Shown: in pieces, positions 27,001-33,000 of the stretch
Numbering within the stretch: position 1 is the first letter of the stretch
Layout of the letters: every line of letters starts with the position of its first letter
From: Bacteroidota bacterium
GTDB lineage: Bacteria > Bacteroidota > Bacteroidia > AKYH767-A > 2013-40CM-41-45
Length of the DNA stretch: 64,000 nt
NCBI GenBank assembly: GCA_016708785.1
Contig: JADJFC010000009.1
Coordinates: 3,496 to 67,495, forward strand
Direction of reading: 5' to 3'
Made by a program: the position numbers

Positions 27001-30000
27001 CACCAGCCACTTTGTATTTAACATCAATCACATTTTCATTTCCGGTTTGAGTATGTAATCGCAATCTCACATTTAAATATTCCCCTAAATTATCCACTTC
27101 ATATTCAGCAGATAGTCTAGATTTCACTTCGCTTGCATCTGCAATACCTGTTAAAGCTGATAAATTATTTCCAAACACATTTAATGCATGAGGGGTAAGT
27201 GGAAGCGTGAAATAGGCATAATTATTAGGCATTCCTTTTACATCTGCCCTCAGCAGCATAAGCGGTGTGTTTGCAAGAGAATTCTTATTGTTTTCATCAT
27301 CTGCGCCAAATCTAAATTGAATTATTTCAGTAGTTTCTGGCAACAATAGTTCGGAAGGTTTGAACGAAATTCTTCCGTCATAACTAGCTTCAGAAAAAAT
27401 CACTCCTTCCAAACCATAGAGTTCAGTAGAGTGATTAAACAGTAAGGAGAATGGTGCTAAAAATTTATTGACTTCCGGTGTGCTTCCTGGTTTCTGGAGA
27501 AGGCTTAACCCAACCCCTTTTGGAAGCATAGGTATCCATTTCTTTTAACCAATCTTGCATATTACCATATATGCTCGAATAATTTGGCTTTAGAAAGTTA
27601 TCAAGATTATTAAATGTATTTTTGAACGCATCTGTTTTGTTAACTACATGTTGAACAAATGCATGAATAGCCAATAACTGTTCGGGTTGAATATCACTCA
27701 ATAATGGATCAATAAGCTTGCCACTATTGACATTTACAAACGGCAATTTTTCACTAAGCTTGTAACCAACAGAAGTAAAAAGAAGGCTATCAGGTGATGT
27801 TGCTCCTATCACTTTACCGTTGAATGTAATTATATCAATAAACGGAATTCGTTCATCATTTGACGCCAAAGTTTGGTCGCACCAAAGTGGTTTTCGCTCA
27901 AAAGCATATTACCAAATGCACCTAATGGCTCATATAAGTTTTCAGTTTCAAAAATGCTTTTACCATCTGAATATTGAAGTCTCAAACGTTGAATCTCAAT
28001 GTCCTTGTAGTTTAAGGCAATACAACTTATTAGACCTCTCCATTCGTTAATTAAGTTTTTATAAAAAAGCATAAGACCAGATGCCTCAGCATCTTTGTCG
28101 GTAACGTTATCCAAGGCATTTTTGAACAGATTTGCTCTAGCATATACCGTAGGCATACCTGATACAATAGCTCCAATATCAACTTTGGCTGTACCATCTT
28201 TTTCAATTCCCAATTCTGGAATAACAATTCCTTTGGTGAAGTTATCTATTTCCAGGTATTACATCCCACTTATATTCTGATTTCCCAGGAGGGTTTGATT
28301 TTGATTTTATGGCTAATGCCTTTAATGTTTTCTCTGCCATAGCTTTTAATTAATAAAGTTTTGGGATTTGGTAATAGCGCTGTAAATATGCGCCATGAAT
28401 TTTTCTTTAGTGGTATTCACTTTTGAGTTTCCTCTGGTTTTACATCAATCAATGTATCTATAAATTTGTCAAATCGATTAGACATTAAACCACCACCGGG
28501 CCAATGATTTTTCTTTTTCGAGAAAAAGTTCTCCAACATCAATTTTTTGCAACTCTCTGAGATTTGTGGTAAAAGCTTTACTGTCGAACATAAAACTACC
28601 TGGAGCAACAGTAGAACGGACCTGATATAACCATCCTGGGAAAAATTGCTGACCGCCATCCGTTGTGTATGCAAATTGTCGGAGATATTCATTTATCTCT
28701 TCGCATTCAGTATCCGGAATTGAGTTGTATTGAGGTAATTTTTGTTTTTCTAAACGAGTTATAAAAGCTCTCATTCCTGATTTTGGATCTGAGTTAAAAC
28801 CTGCACCATTTATTGATAGAACTATGTGACCAAGTGAGAAAAATGCCCCTAATCTATTAGCAAAAACTTCACCCGCCTTATTTTCACTGCCAACAAAATC
28901 GTTAAATGACAGATTAAATGAATTATCTTTGAATTCTATGGCTTTATATAGGTATTCCGCTTTTTCAACATCAAAACCAGTCGATTTTGTCAAGAAATCA
29001 TAAGCGGCACATGCACACAACATTTCTGTAATATGACAAGCGTTTTTTGTTTTTCACCTCCAGTAATTGTATTACTTTCCTTTTCCTCACCCATCTTTTT
29101 ACTTTCTACAGGCCACCCAATGTGATACATGGTTTTATATGTTCTTTGAACCGTTGGATCGTTTTGATAGAACTGCAAAGCAGCCTGGCTATTGAGTGGA
29201 AAAAATGAAGAATCAGCAATTACACTATCATCCTTCGTGGACATCTGCTTGGCATCAGGTTTTTGAATGTGAAATATTCAGTTAATAAAGTTGAGCCAAA
29301 TTTGGTTTTACTAAAGTCCAATGTTGATTTGCCTCCCGAGCGTATTTGAATAAAATCCTGGAATGCTTTTGGAATTACCAGGATTGACGAAGCACCAGTA
29401 CCACCAAATATCGAACCGAAAACAAACACACGAGCACCTAATTTACCCGCTTCATTCAGTTTATTCATGAAGACTTCAAGCTCTTGGTCTTGAGCTGCTA
29501 TATTTGAACCTGATGCTAAATTTCTTGCAGATTCAATTATGGCATGATACATTAGGGGGGATCCTAAATGGGGTTGAGCACGATATCCATGCGCGAAATT
29601 AAATTCCTGAAGAGAATTTTCATCTAAAAACAAATCTGAAACCAGCTTATTGGCTTTTGTTTTTCAGGATTGCCTTCAGCCAGCTTAGATATACTTCTAT
29701 AGTTAGCTCTCGCACTGCCAGAGTAATCCGTCCAAAATCTACGTAAATTTAATTTAGCAGAAAAGAACGTATTAGCATTTGGGGTACCTCCTTTAGGGCC
29801 GGAATCGGAGGTTTTAATGCGGCTGTATAGTTCAATCAGATTTTCGGTTTTCGTTTTGTTACCATTTAACTGATCCGTATCAAGTGTTAAAACCTCTATT
29901 TCTTGATTATCAAACATTCCTATTGCACATAGGTGTGTAAAGGCCTCCAGGCACCTCATACCTGTGCCACCAATACCTATTACAAATAATTTATCTTGAC

Positions 30001-33000
30001 TCATTGATGTTTTTTTTTAAAGATTAAAACCAGTTTCCTAATTTGCCGTTTTTGAACACTTTGCTTAACACAAAGCCCAAAACAATATACACTACGAATC
30101 CAATACCAGCAGCTATTGGAAGTGATGCCATGTAATCATCATAGACCATTTGATCATTTTCAGGATTTGGAGCCAACACGAATGCACTTAGAACATAGAA
30201 TAAAACGGGATTAAGGATTGCCATGACCCAGAACCACATTTTGCGTTTTCCCGGGTCTTTAGGGTTAGCGCCACCTTCAAATTTAATGGCATTAGAAATA
30301 ACTGCGGCTATTAAAATGAATAAACCGGCTGCAATGATGGAAGTGATGTAACTGTTCATGTTCTTAATTTTTATTGTTTGATTTGTTGATTATTCAGATT
30401 TAGTGGAGTTTCCTAATTTAATGTAGTAGGAATACAAGATTTTACCTTTAGGGCTAACGGATGGTTCTTGAAGCGAATTTCTTATAGCTTCTGCCAAGGA
30501 ATTATTTATTTTATCCTTCTGTGTAGTTGAACTCCATTGAAAATCGTTGTTGAATATTTTCACTATTAAATGTAGCGTCTTCAATTACGTAACCGATTCG
30601 TAATAATGCCGTATTACTTTTAATGTTTTTAAGCTTGTAATTTTTATGAAAATTTGTTATTAGCTCTACTTTTTCAGGAGAATTTTTAAGATGGTCTGAA
30701 AAGATTTGTTCATCATGAGAAAACAGCTCTTCCCAAGATTCAAGAGGTTTTGGATTCCCAGAAACGAAAATCCAATCTTTCTTTAATTCAGTTTTATCCT
30801 TTTCATAGCAAGCAGTTACTATAGGATCTTTTTTGCTTTCGTCAGACCATACATCATTTTTACCTTTATCTTTAGTCATTTTGGGTTGATGATTTTTTGC
30901 CTCTTCACATTCTGCATAGTGTTTATAATCGTCAGTAGCGTCATATACCCTAACAGCAACCTTATTTAGTTTATAGGAAGACTGATCAGAAGCGTTTAAG
31001 TATAGCTTTGCAAGGAAAATTCCATTCTCCTTATCAATAATATTCTGTACATACTTATCAACATCCGCATTCCAAACTTTATTGATGCCAATTACCTCGT
31101 AAGGCAGTTTCTTATCTAAACATGCATTACTATTAAAGTTTTTCCATTGGTTAAACTGCTTATTTTGCATGCCAGTGAAATCTTTCCCTCCATAATTATT
31201 CGTAACAGAATATGGATTGTTGTTCAAGGTAAATTCTTTAGTTGTATAGCGGTCCTTTAATGCATCGCGAACCATTGAAATCATACTAGACTCATTTGCA
31301 CTTCCATGAGTGAAAACTGTAAAGTACAAATGTTTTGCACTTTTTATCTTAGACTTATTATTAACTTCCTCATAATCGGTGTAAAAGAAAGTTATTGAAT
31401 TACCTTTTTTCAGCCAATTAATAAAGTAACTCTTGGGATAGTTTTCAAACTGTTCCTTACCATCAGTAGTATACTCTTCATAATCGGATACTAATAAGGC
31501 ATCATTGTTTCCCTCAGTTATTTTCTTTAAGGTCTCTTGAATAGGCGCCATTATATCTTTGTACTGTTTTGGGTCAGAAACTTTATTAAAGAGCTCGTTA
31601 CTATTGTAGTCAAGAGGATTAATTTTGCCACCGCCCAAGGCAAACCATTCAATATCAGGATTTACAAGCTTATTTGTAATTGCTTGTATAATCTGAACAT
31701 TTTGAGGGTTTTTTAGTGTACGCCTGAACTAAACCGTCAGAAAAATCTATGTAAACGGAACTTTTCCCAGATTTAGGATTGGAAGATTCACCCAGACTAG
31801 CACTGTAATAACCATCAATGTATTTTTCAACTTCTTTTTCAGGATGAAAATTGGAAAAAGCTTTTTTTTCACCACTGTCACCGCAGGATGATAAGAAGAC
31901 AATACCTCCTGCAATAGCAGGAATCACGATTGATTTTAAAAATTTAACTTGCATGCCTATTTGTTTTTATTATTAGTTGAGTCTGTTATTCCTTCAATAA
32001 AACCATCCATTTGGTTACCGAGGTCTTTTACGGATTCTTGAAAATCATTAATTCCCTTTTTTACAGCAACAGCAAAATAACGACCTTGCAACTTTCCAAT
32101 CTCTTTTACCTGTTCATCGGTGTATTTATCTCTGTTTTGTTCCAAGTCACTTTCAAGCTCTTGCATCTTTTTTTCAAGTGTAGACCAATCTTTTGCGGTC
32201 ATTTCTTCTTTGTTTTGCTCAGCATATTCAATTTCTTTTTCAGCTTTATCAAGCCTTGATTGCACATTGTTGCAGCTGCTTAACGCTATAAGTAAGCCTA
32301 ATAAAAGTATCGTTTGTCTCATGTCTTTAAATTTTGTTTCAATATTAGATATTTTTTTTGAAACTATCGGTAAAAATGGCTCTATTGGTTTTGCGAAGTG
32401 TCGGCTTGTGTTTTGGGCAAACCAAATGTGCCATTTGTGCGGCTGGCTAAAATTGTTTTTAAAAAATGTGTGGTGGAAAAAAATAAAAATACAGAAGCGT
32501 TGGCTTTCGGGTCGGCTGTCTGATGGTTCATTTGTCCAGTCACTTGTTTACGCGGCCCCTTGGGGCCGCCCGGCGGGTGTTTTGTTCGAGTTGATGCACC
32601 TGGTGCATTTACATCCAGATTGGAAGACCCTCTTCATGTTCCTTTTATGTTTTTAGATTTAACTTTTATTGCGGAATGCATGATTATTTTATATTATGCA
32701 GAATTAAAATTTATAACAATCCGTATCGATTTGAAACTGTAACCACACGGCCTTACAATTATAGTTATTTTTTCTTTTACTTTATAGATTTCCCTATAAA
32801 TCTAGCTGATCCAATGGATTCTTTATCTGATCAAAACCTTTTGTTGTAATATGTGTGTAAATTTCTGTGGTCTTACTGCTTTCGTGTCCTAGCAGACTCT
32901 GTATATACCTTAAATCAGTGCCATTTTCGAGTAAATGAGTTGCAAAAGTGTGTCTCAACGTATGAACTCCAACATTTTGCTTAATTCCGGCTTTCGTAGC

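Follow-up and report, generated by a model that had tools for sequence, protein, structure and literature searches.

To our knowledge, few branches of the tubulin/FtsZ superfamily are known in bacteria, namely FtsZ, BtubA/B, TubZ/PhuZ and FtsZl1/2. Here, we consider a 64,000-nucleotide stretch of a Bacteroidota bacterium genome (assembly GCA_016708785.1, contig JADJFC010000009.1; hereafter the window), in which a gene on the minus strand, named D, had been noticed from the sequence alone as a tubulin/FtsZ-like GTPase candidate with multiple frame breaks. We conclude, with a probability of about three in four, that D is a functional, divergent tubulin-like protein of 553 amino acids (aa), a subunit of the B-C-D-E-F gene module, and that it is broken only by assembly.

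The best-scoring curated profile for D is Pfam Tubulin_2 (PF13809), which corresponds to the 'FtsZ-like' proteins of Makarova and Koonin (2010; PMC9871819), here called FtsZl1. Both D and FtsZl1 carry large inserts between the nucleotide-binding loops T1 and T4, lack FtsZ_C and Tubulin_C (the Pfam scan found no FtsZ_C domain in D), have an unrecognisable T7 region and occur with OmpA-type and membrane proteins. However, the FtsZl1 proteins of the 2010 paper are ~900-1,190 aa long, end in a coiled-coil C-terminus and are encoded near vWA proteins, kinases and a novel GTPase, whereas members of the D family measure ~500-560 aa, have no coiled-coil C-terminus and no vWA neighbour (the ~80 related loci compared contain no vWA gene). 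They are instead locked to a ~1,200-1,300-aa protein with an Hsp70-type nucleotide-binding domain (NBD; protein E), a protein with three transmembrane segments and a lipoprotein. Unlike FtsZl1, the Bacteroidota D clade also falls below the Pfam cut-off for Tubulin_2. One FtsZl1 locus in the supplement of the 2010 paper, amb2961 of M. magneticum, has a 1,626-aa DnaK-like neighbour, which may distantly echo the partnership of D and E.

D shares with FtsZ and the archaeal CetZ the core GTPase fold, and its T4 (GGTG) and T5 (P-F/Y-x-F) align with theirs residue by residue. FtsZ chains are its top fold matches in the PDB, and CetZ (3zid, 4b45) is the top match of the family profile among PDB sequences. 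It differs from FtsZ in its low identity (11-15%), in a T1-T4 spacing about twice as long, and in having neither a conserved T7 aspartate nor a match to the FtsZ C-terminal domain. The likeness to PhuZ and TubZ is seen in fold-level matches from BFVD, but sequence comparison gives no match, phage records contain no relative, and the gene lies in other surroundings.

Gene D and its place in the tubulin/FtsZ superfamily

The gene and the loops of its corrected product are listed below, with conservation taken from a family alignment of 55 sequences that also served as input for the structure model.

28346..30004, minus strand: protein D gene, tubulin/FtsZ-like GTPase, 553 codons after correction of five 1-base indels
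29960..29977, minus strand: T1-like glycine loop GIGGTG, residues 10-15 (G12 and G13 invariant, G15 invariant or nearly so)
29388..29417, minus strand: T4 signature GSIFGGTGAS, residues 197-206 (S198, F200, G201 and G204 invariant)
Residues D42, D44, N47, G48 and N49, after S2: T2, LDTDxxNGN
Residues G140, R142 and G148, before H3: T3-like, GYRxxxxxGS
Residues Y244, F245 and F247, after S5: T5, PYFxF
Residues G316, Q320, N322, H325 and E328, between S6 and H7: T6 and start of H7, TGGxxQxN

The stitched and corrected translation was compared with an intact relative, P0001, and with the contig that carries it, L001. It is identical to P0001 at 519 of 553 positions (94%) and contains no internal stop. 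The sequence-only reading had placed the gene at 28417-30004; its upper end holds, while the lower end lies beyond, at 28346. The two peptides on which that reading was built are where it had found them, since open reading frame (ORF) 29624-30004 (-) begins MSQDKLFVIGIGGTGMRCLEAF, the T1-like loop, and ORF 29220-29633 (-) includes VFVFGSIFGGTGASSILVIPKAF, the T4-like one. No second copy of these glycine motifs is found in the six-frame translation of the window.

Once translated, the corrected gene gave matches to the Tubulin_2 and Tubulin profiles, and these show a likeness beyond chance. Stitched D matched Tubulin_2 with an E-value of 2.4e-5 (24.2 bits), over a segment running from T1 to T4/T5 (profile positions 2-180 of 356), and Pfam Tubulin (PF00091) with an E-value of 2.4e-3; P0001 gave similar values (22.3 bits for Tubulin_2). 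Among the 55 aligned family members, 46 match Tubulin_2 (best E-value 4.6e-11) and 35 match Tubulin (best 1.2e-6). Three distant members, P0221, P0241 and P0254 (22-25% identical to P0001), reach 29-38 bits for Tubulin_2 and so exceed its gathering cut-off of 27 bits. At the residue level, a phmmer search of D against PDB sequences returned recognisable matches that were all FtsZ chains, with SARNLASGAN...VFVFGSIFGGTGASSIPVIP aligned to FtsZ T3-T4. Besides, hhalign aligned the family profile with E. coli FtsZ across S4-T4-H4-S5-T5, placing RVFVFGSIFGGTGAS...LLTEYFTF over MVFIAAGMGGGTGTG...VVTKPFNFEG, with weak statistics.

The AlphaFold2 model of the D family is confident, with a predicted local distance difference test score (pLDDT) of 92.1 and a predicted template modelling score of 0.94. 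The modelled order S1-H1-S2-H2-S3...S4-H4-S5-H5-S6-H7 has the expected beta-alpha-beta core and is followed by a mostly helical C-terminal domain. The N-terminal ~340 residues make up the GTPase domain and helix H7, and the C-terminal ~210 residues are family-specific. In a Foldseek search with this model, the top 50 PDB matches were FtsZ or tubulin (probability 0.93-1.00, E-values from 2.6e-4), with the exception of 2fiq, and the best BFVD matches were phage tubulin, PhuZ and FtsZ. By these two methods, the fold of the GTPase domain and H7 resembles that of solved FtsZ and tubulin structures.

Motifs were assigned to loops from their order and from the FtsZ alignment of T4-T5, with no superposition. 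Within and next to T4, G202, T203 and A205 are at least 96% conserved and G197 and P209 are invariant or nearly so; the motif aligns to GGGTGTG of FtsZ. The sequence-only reading had also drawn attention to a T1-T4 spacing of about 195 residues, longer than in FtsZ, as in divergent FtsZ-like families. The spacing is indeed long, since the T4 motif GGGTG of E. coli FtsZ aligns near residue 105 in hhalign, and it matches a remark of the 2010 paper that FtsZ-like families have inserts between T1 and T4. Its exact value in corrected D is 189 residues (G12 to G201), and it results from helices inserted between S3 and H3. Because equivalents of loops T1-T6 are conserved, we infer that D binds GTP through them. 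The check for a catalytic acidic residue in T7, which the sequence-only reading had called for, gave a different outcome. After H7 (residues 326-339), no position reaches 80% acidic residues among the 55 sequences; the figures are 75% for D337 and 76% for D370. A canonical T7 is therefore not supported in D.

Besides this absence, further results speak against a straightforward assignment of D to the superfamily. D and its close relatives score below every curated cut-off (22-24 versus 27 bits for Tubulin_2; 18.6-21.5 versus 33 bits for Tubulin), and the only trace among NCBIfam models is a score of 13.7 bits for FtsZ TIGR00065, whose cut-off is 295.2. Foldseek template modelling scores are also low (0.21-0.36 per target, with root-mean-square deviations of 8-10 A), and therefore only the core fold of D matches. 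Since its scores stay below the curated cut-offs, D counts as remotely related to Tubulin_2, Tubulin and TIGR00065 and does not belong to them. The profile matches, the residue-level FtsZ alignment over S4-T4-H4-S5-T5 and the confident structure model nevertheless bear out the tubulin/FtsZ-like identity first proposed, and D is a very divergent member of this superfamily, outside its curated families.

A GxGGxG motif might instead mark an NAD/FAD-binding Rossmann enzyme, as the sequence-only reading had foreseen for a protein lacking T2 to T7. The first fragment of D, taken alone, gives a weak GDI-family match (E-value 0.16), and the exception among the Foldseek matches, 2fiq, is a sugar kinase chain outside the tubulins. 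However, no NAD/FAD family reaches an E-value of 0.1 or better on full D in Pfam, equivalents of T2 to T6 are conserved, the second glycine motif aligns to FtsZ T4 and the PYFxF that follows it to T5, and 2fiq accounts for only two rows of the top 50. The probability that D is a Rossmann enzyme is therefore negligible.

Frame breaks in gene D

Three-frame translation and alignment to L001 resolve gene D in the window into six reading-frame pieces, which arise from five 1-base indels: deletions near 29655, 29265, 29048 and 28425, and an insertion at 28518. All five lie within or adjoining runs of A4-A7. At least three frame changes had been noticed in the sequence-only reading, and the exact count is thus five. 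As to their origin, that reading had left the choice between a pseudogene and homopolymer errors, and the evidence favours the latter.

Two relatives are informative here. L001 aligns to window 21327-30697 with ~87% nucleotide identity, and the ratio of nonsynonymous to synonymous substitution rates (dN/dS) between its D gene and that of the window is 0.035 (dS 0.82, dN 0.029). A scan of genome collections revealed a closer relative, L042, a contig of a Saprospiraceae metagenome-assembled genome (MAG), which is 98% identical to window 24058-32414 with 94 gap positions. When the three sequences are aligned together, both L042 and L001 show the in-frame length at each of the five sites where the D gene of the window has an indel. 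L042 carries private indels of 1-2 bases elsewhere, and these outnumber the window's own. Overall, 106 substitutions and ~60 indel events separate the window from L042 over 8.3 kb, an indel/substitution ratio of ~0.6. Such a high ratio is typical of consensus errors and far above real divergence between close strains. The name of the L042 contig, tig00097067, is of the type given by a long-read assembler. Nanopore MAGs from activated sludge, assembled with CANU and polished with Racon and medaka, have been described (PMC8012365); an origin of L042 or of the window in that work is not confirmed.

Given that the indels sit in or beside A-runs, that L042 and L001 keep the frame at each site, that correction leaves no internal stop and that dN/dS is 0.035, the frame breaks of D are very likely assembly errors and not decay. 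A true pseudogene, in an operon that decays here through real frameshift mutations, would also account for five frameshifts in the 1.66 kb of D together with those in the genes for B, E, GYF-DUF805, TerD and TerC. It would fit with fragmentation being concentrated in window 1-32 kb, adjoining an integrase, a transposase and methylases, and with about half of the private codon changes in E being nonsynonymous. Further support for it, and a point against an intact D, comes from six amino-acid changes private to the window in the GTPase domain (H88R, V132L, L137F, T145P, H150P and P209L). They leave a residual doubt, as L137F and P209L hit nearly invariant positions and could reflect further errors or real damage; several of the six create C-runs and may be further miscalls. 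On the other hand, decay sits poorly with the lack of an in-frame stop in corrected D, with the low dN/dS and with the indel/substitution ratio. Moreover, not one frameshift is common to the window and the 98%-identical L042, which has its own, larger set of private indels and whose contig name marks a long-read assembler. We therefore consider a pseudogene improbable. Gene D should be annotated as intact, its breaks being almost certainly assembly errors.

Programmed frameshifting or phase variation was considered for D and rejected: there are five separate sites, relatives keep none of them, and the closest one, L042, has an unbroken frame at each.

The conserved module and its partner proteins

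The gene order around D was established from intact contigs and from tblastn searches of module proteins on ~80 genome loci, where the sequence was long enough. On intact contigs, B (~375-560 aa) comes first, followed by C (~111 aa), D, E (~1,290 aa) and F (~420-690 aa), after which come TerD and another TerD-like gene. The order B-C-D-E-F is kept in all of the ~80 loci that are long enough, and TerD follows in most of them. Downstream of the TerD pair, the Bacteroidota loci often have OmpA and, in fewer cases, TerC. In the window, the module and its neighbours are laid out as follows.

31957..32322, minus strand: small lipoprotein with a weak DUF6565 match, found upstream of B in some related loci
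30511..31954, minus strand: protein B, ~480-aa predicted lipoprotein (signal ...VFLSSC), split into 31670-31954 and 30511-31638
30024..30359, minus strand: protein C, 111 aa, three hydrophobic segments, directly upstream of D in nearly all related loci
24451..28340, minus strand: protein E, ~1,290 aa, frameshifted; its C-terminal ~750 aa form an Hsp70-type NBD
23027..24448, minus strand: protein F, 473 aa, intact, with a proline-rich C-terminal tail
22468..23024, minus strand: GYF_2 + DUF805 membrane protein (Pfam), one frameshift
21894..22447, minus strand: TerD-domain protein (TerD E-value 3e-57), one frameshift near the 3' end
21327..21870, minus strand: second TerD-like protein, next after TerD
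16354..20180, minus strand: block of further Ter-type genes, made up of the next three features
18924-20180, minus strand: PD40/OmpA-like protein
17448-18773, minus strand: HAD + PRTase_3 protein (ComF-like phosphoribosyltransferase, PRTase)
16354-17131, minus strand: TerC in two overlapping ORFs (profile positions 9-121 and 122-176), an apparent frameshift

The order B-C-D-E(-F) is seen in Saprospiraceae, Chitinophagaceae, Pedobacter, Mucilaginibacter, Flavobacteriaceae, Prevotella, Muribaculaceae, Bacteroides and Barnesiella, and D is the best-conserved component of the module across loci (46-87% identity). More distant metagenomic relatives of D, 22-24% identical, keep the arrangement 'B?-C-D-E', with E proteins whose ATPase region is homologous to that of E. 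Relatives at 26-30% identity are present in the same arrangement on plasmids of Picosynechococcus and Gloeothece, one of them being annotated as 'tubulin-like doman-containing protein'. On the Gloeothece verrucosa PCC 7822 plasmid Cy782204 (L088) and on a plasmid of Picosynechococcus PCC 73109 (L089), the module consists of a small protein, a tubulin-like protein and a ~1,100-aa protein, with no TerD; in L089, a TM2-domain membrane protein lies downstream of it.

The D family is large. An exhaustive HMMER search with P0001 yielded 1,541 cluster representatives (50%-identity clusters) at E-values of 1e-3 or below, most of them 480-560 aa long, the distant ones matching only residues ~5-340. The family is present in the genomes of at least 556 species, including gut Bacteroidales, Prevotella, Pedobacter and Flavobacterium, and ~20 species of Pedobacter carry the module. 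Identity to D roughly tracks taxonomy, with 66-70% in Sphingobacteriia/Chitinophagia and 46-53% in Bacteroidales. Apart from the plasmid-encoded protein mentioned above, nearly all database names are 'hypothetical protein'.

The partner that stands out is E, whose C-terminal half is an Hsp70-type NBD fold according to modelling. A 756-aa C-terminal fragment of an E homologue was modelled by AlphaFold with a pLDDT of 80.9, and the top 50 PDB matches of this model are all Hsp70, DnaK or Hsp110 NBDs (E-values from 2.1e-7; 204 matches at 1e-3 or below). The conserved motifs are those of an ASKHA NBD, namely phosphate-1 LG(I/V)DFGSTN (D598-x-G600), phosphate-2 FD(I/V)GGSTTD (D919-x-G-G-x-T-T-D926) and adenosine FAGKGxRI (G1072-K-G-x-R1076). 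In hhalign, the E profile aligns the first of them (LGVDFGSTN) with E. coli DnaK, with weak statistics. E is otherwise unlike Hsp70, as it has a ~555-aa N-terminal region of unrecognised fold, a low-complexity insert inside the NBD and no Pfam match to an Hsp70 substrate-binding domain. No relative of the N-terminal region was recognised in Pfam, PDB sequence or E-profile searches, and the Pfam HSP70 and MreB scores of E are far below the cut-offs. PDB sequence searches with E, F and B gave nothing usable, the E profile returning only non-significant Hsp70 motif matches.

The insert in E lies at window 25770-25900 (-) and is a low-complexity linker rich in Gly, Ser and Trp, with WG...WG repeats and a length that varies among relatives; it corresponds to residues 262-328 of the model, where pLDDT drops to ~30. 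A UniRef label of 'Virulence factor SrfB' on the E homologue of Mucilaginibacter calamicampi (P0319) was not retained, neither this protein nor any other E giving a Pfam SrfB match.

The remaining partners point to the envelope. In the window, as in most orthologues, B starts with a signal of the lipoprotein type. The tail of F is proline-rich (...PPVPNK...PPPPPPPPPIKKK), and the next gene fuses GYF_2 to a DUF805 membrane domain. As GYF domains bind proline-rich peptides, the tail of F and the GYF_2-DUF805 protein suggest a tether, a built-in pair of ligand and receptor.

Directly downstream of the module, the window resembles Ter clusters, with TerD, a ComF-like PRTase with HAD, OmpA and TerC; distant copies of the module, unlike Ter clusters, have no TerD. 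In the literature searched, which did not cover the 2012 comparative-genomics survey of Ter systems, no description of Ter clusters includes a tubulin-like/Hsp70-like module, and nothing relevant ties tubulin-like or FtsZ-like proteins to TerD or Hsp70-like proteins. Within the same scope, there is no paper or experiment on the short D family or its module, and the family has apparently never been studied.

The two halves of the window differ in their integrity. ORFs of at least 200 codons cover 31-59% of each 8-kb bin in 1-32000 and 60-82% in 32001-64000; many ORF pieces of the first half overlap on the same strand, and the density of A/T homopolymers is the same in both halves. Our guess is that uneven coverage or polishing lies behind the fragmentation of the first half. 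Exactly at the border between the two sits a pair of genes at 32794-34949 (-), for a 544-aa tyrosine recombinase (Phage_integrase, E-value 9.5e-41, with a long N-terminal extension) and an HTH_3 protein. Another gene in overlapping pieces is found at 3021-5974 (-), where a 547-aa piece (3484-5127) starts with a true Pfam HSP70 match (E-value 1.6e-14, profile positions 290-373) and is separate from E. Mobile or defence-type genes occupy 10259-16070, with an SNase-like nuclease (10259-10819), a DDE transposase (12031-13155) and two N6_N4 DNA methylases (14468-15124 and 15327-16070). There is no tRNA gene in the whole window.

Proposed function and its consequences

The partnership of D and E, their membrane association and a stress function are inferred from gene context. 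D, with GTP, and E, with ATP, would most likely act as one GTPase-ATPase unit, because they are so tightly co-inherited, and this unit would work at the cytoplasmic face of the inner membrane. It could be linked to the periplasmic lipoprotein B and to OmpA-type proteins, with C as one connection and F together with GYF-DUF805 as another. Since TerD and, in some loci, TerC are linked to the module, such an envelope-spanning complex may respond to Ter-type envelope or ion stress. By analogy with what was proposed for FtsZl1, membrane remodelling or repair would be the most economical role. With no canonical T7, D may polymerise by a different contact or not at all. If it does polymerise, hydrolysis would probably be triggered differently or by a partner; if it does not, E or another partner might control its nucleotide cycle. 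In its full form, this proposal makes D and E an obligate GTPase-ATPase pair at the core of an undescribed envelope-spanning machine, with a lipoprotein, a three-transmembrane protein and a proline-rich adaptor, and makes the D family a new functional branch of the tubulin superfamily that dispenses with the canonical T7-mediated polymerisation cycle. We put it forward as tentative, as a possibility that is less likely than not.

Null results from the database and literature searches also count against this explanation. The Pfam scan gave no named system for D-E, PADLOC-DB v2 models run on eight ORF pieces covering D and E gave no match at an E-value of 1 or below, and the literature yielded no earlier account, as stated above.

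The same module could be an anti-phage or conflict system carried on mobile DNA instead of an envelope stress or housekeeping machine, with D as a sensor or as an effector scaffold. An association of Ter genes with phage inhibition is long established, and TerY-P counts among the listed defence systems. In the window, the module is near an integrase, an HTH gene, a transposase and two DNA methylases, and some of its relatives are on cyanobacterial plasmids. However, PADLOC gave no match, tblastn found no relative of D in 50,697 phage records, and the conserved core holds no nuclease, protease or other obvious effector. In addition, the module occurs in many species of the same genera, as in the ~20 of Pedobacter, with identities that track taxonomy, which looks more vertical than island-like. 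A role in defence is thus the less likely reading, yet it stays a serious alternative.

The fold matches to phage tubulin and PhuZ in BFVD, together with the plasmid location of some relatives, could alternatively evoke a cytomotive filament of the TubZ/PhuZ type, with a plasmid or an integrated element as the DNA to be segregated. Yet most copies of D are chromosomal, and its conserved partners, namely a lipoprotein, a membrane protein and the giant Hsp70-like protein, include no TubR-like DNA-binding adaptor. The T7 residue required for polymerisation-coupled hydrolysis is not conserved either, and we regard such a segregation function as very improbable.

To conclude, for the window alone, the finding amounts to an ordinary intact gene disguised by assembly errors. 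Beyond it, the D family would represent a separate, short, large and overlooked tubulin-superfamily branch whose Hsp70-like partner is fixed, and an unusually rigid gene partnership binds D to this giant ATPase as well as to envelope proteins. Should the pair prove to be a working machine, it would be genetically tractable, since culturable Pedobacter and Flavobacterium carry the module. It would then raise the questions of how a tubulin fold operates without a canonical T7, how it cooperates with an Hsp70-type ATPase, and which role the Ter stress genes play.

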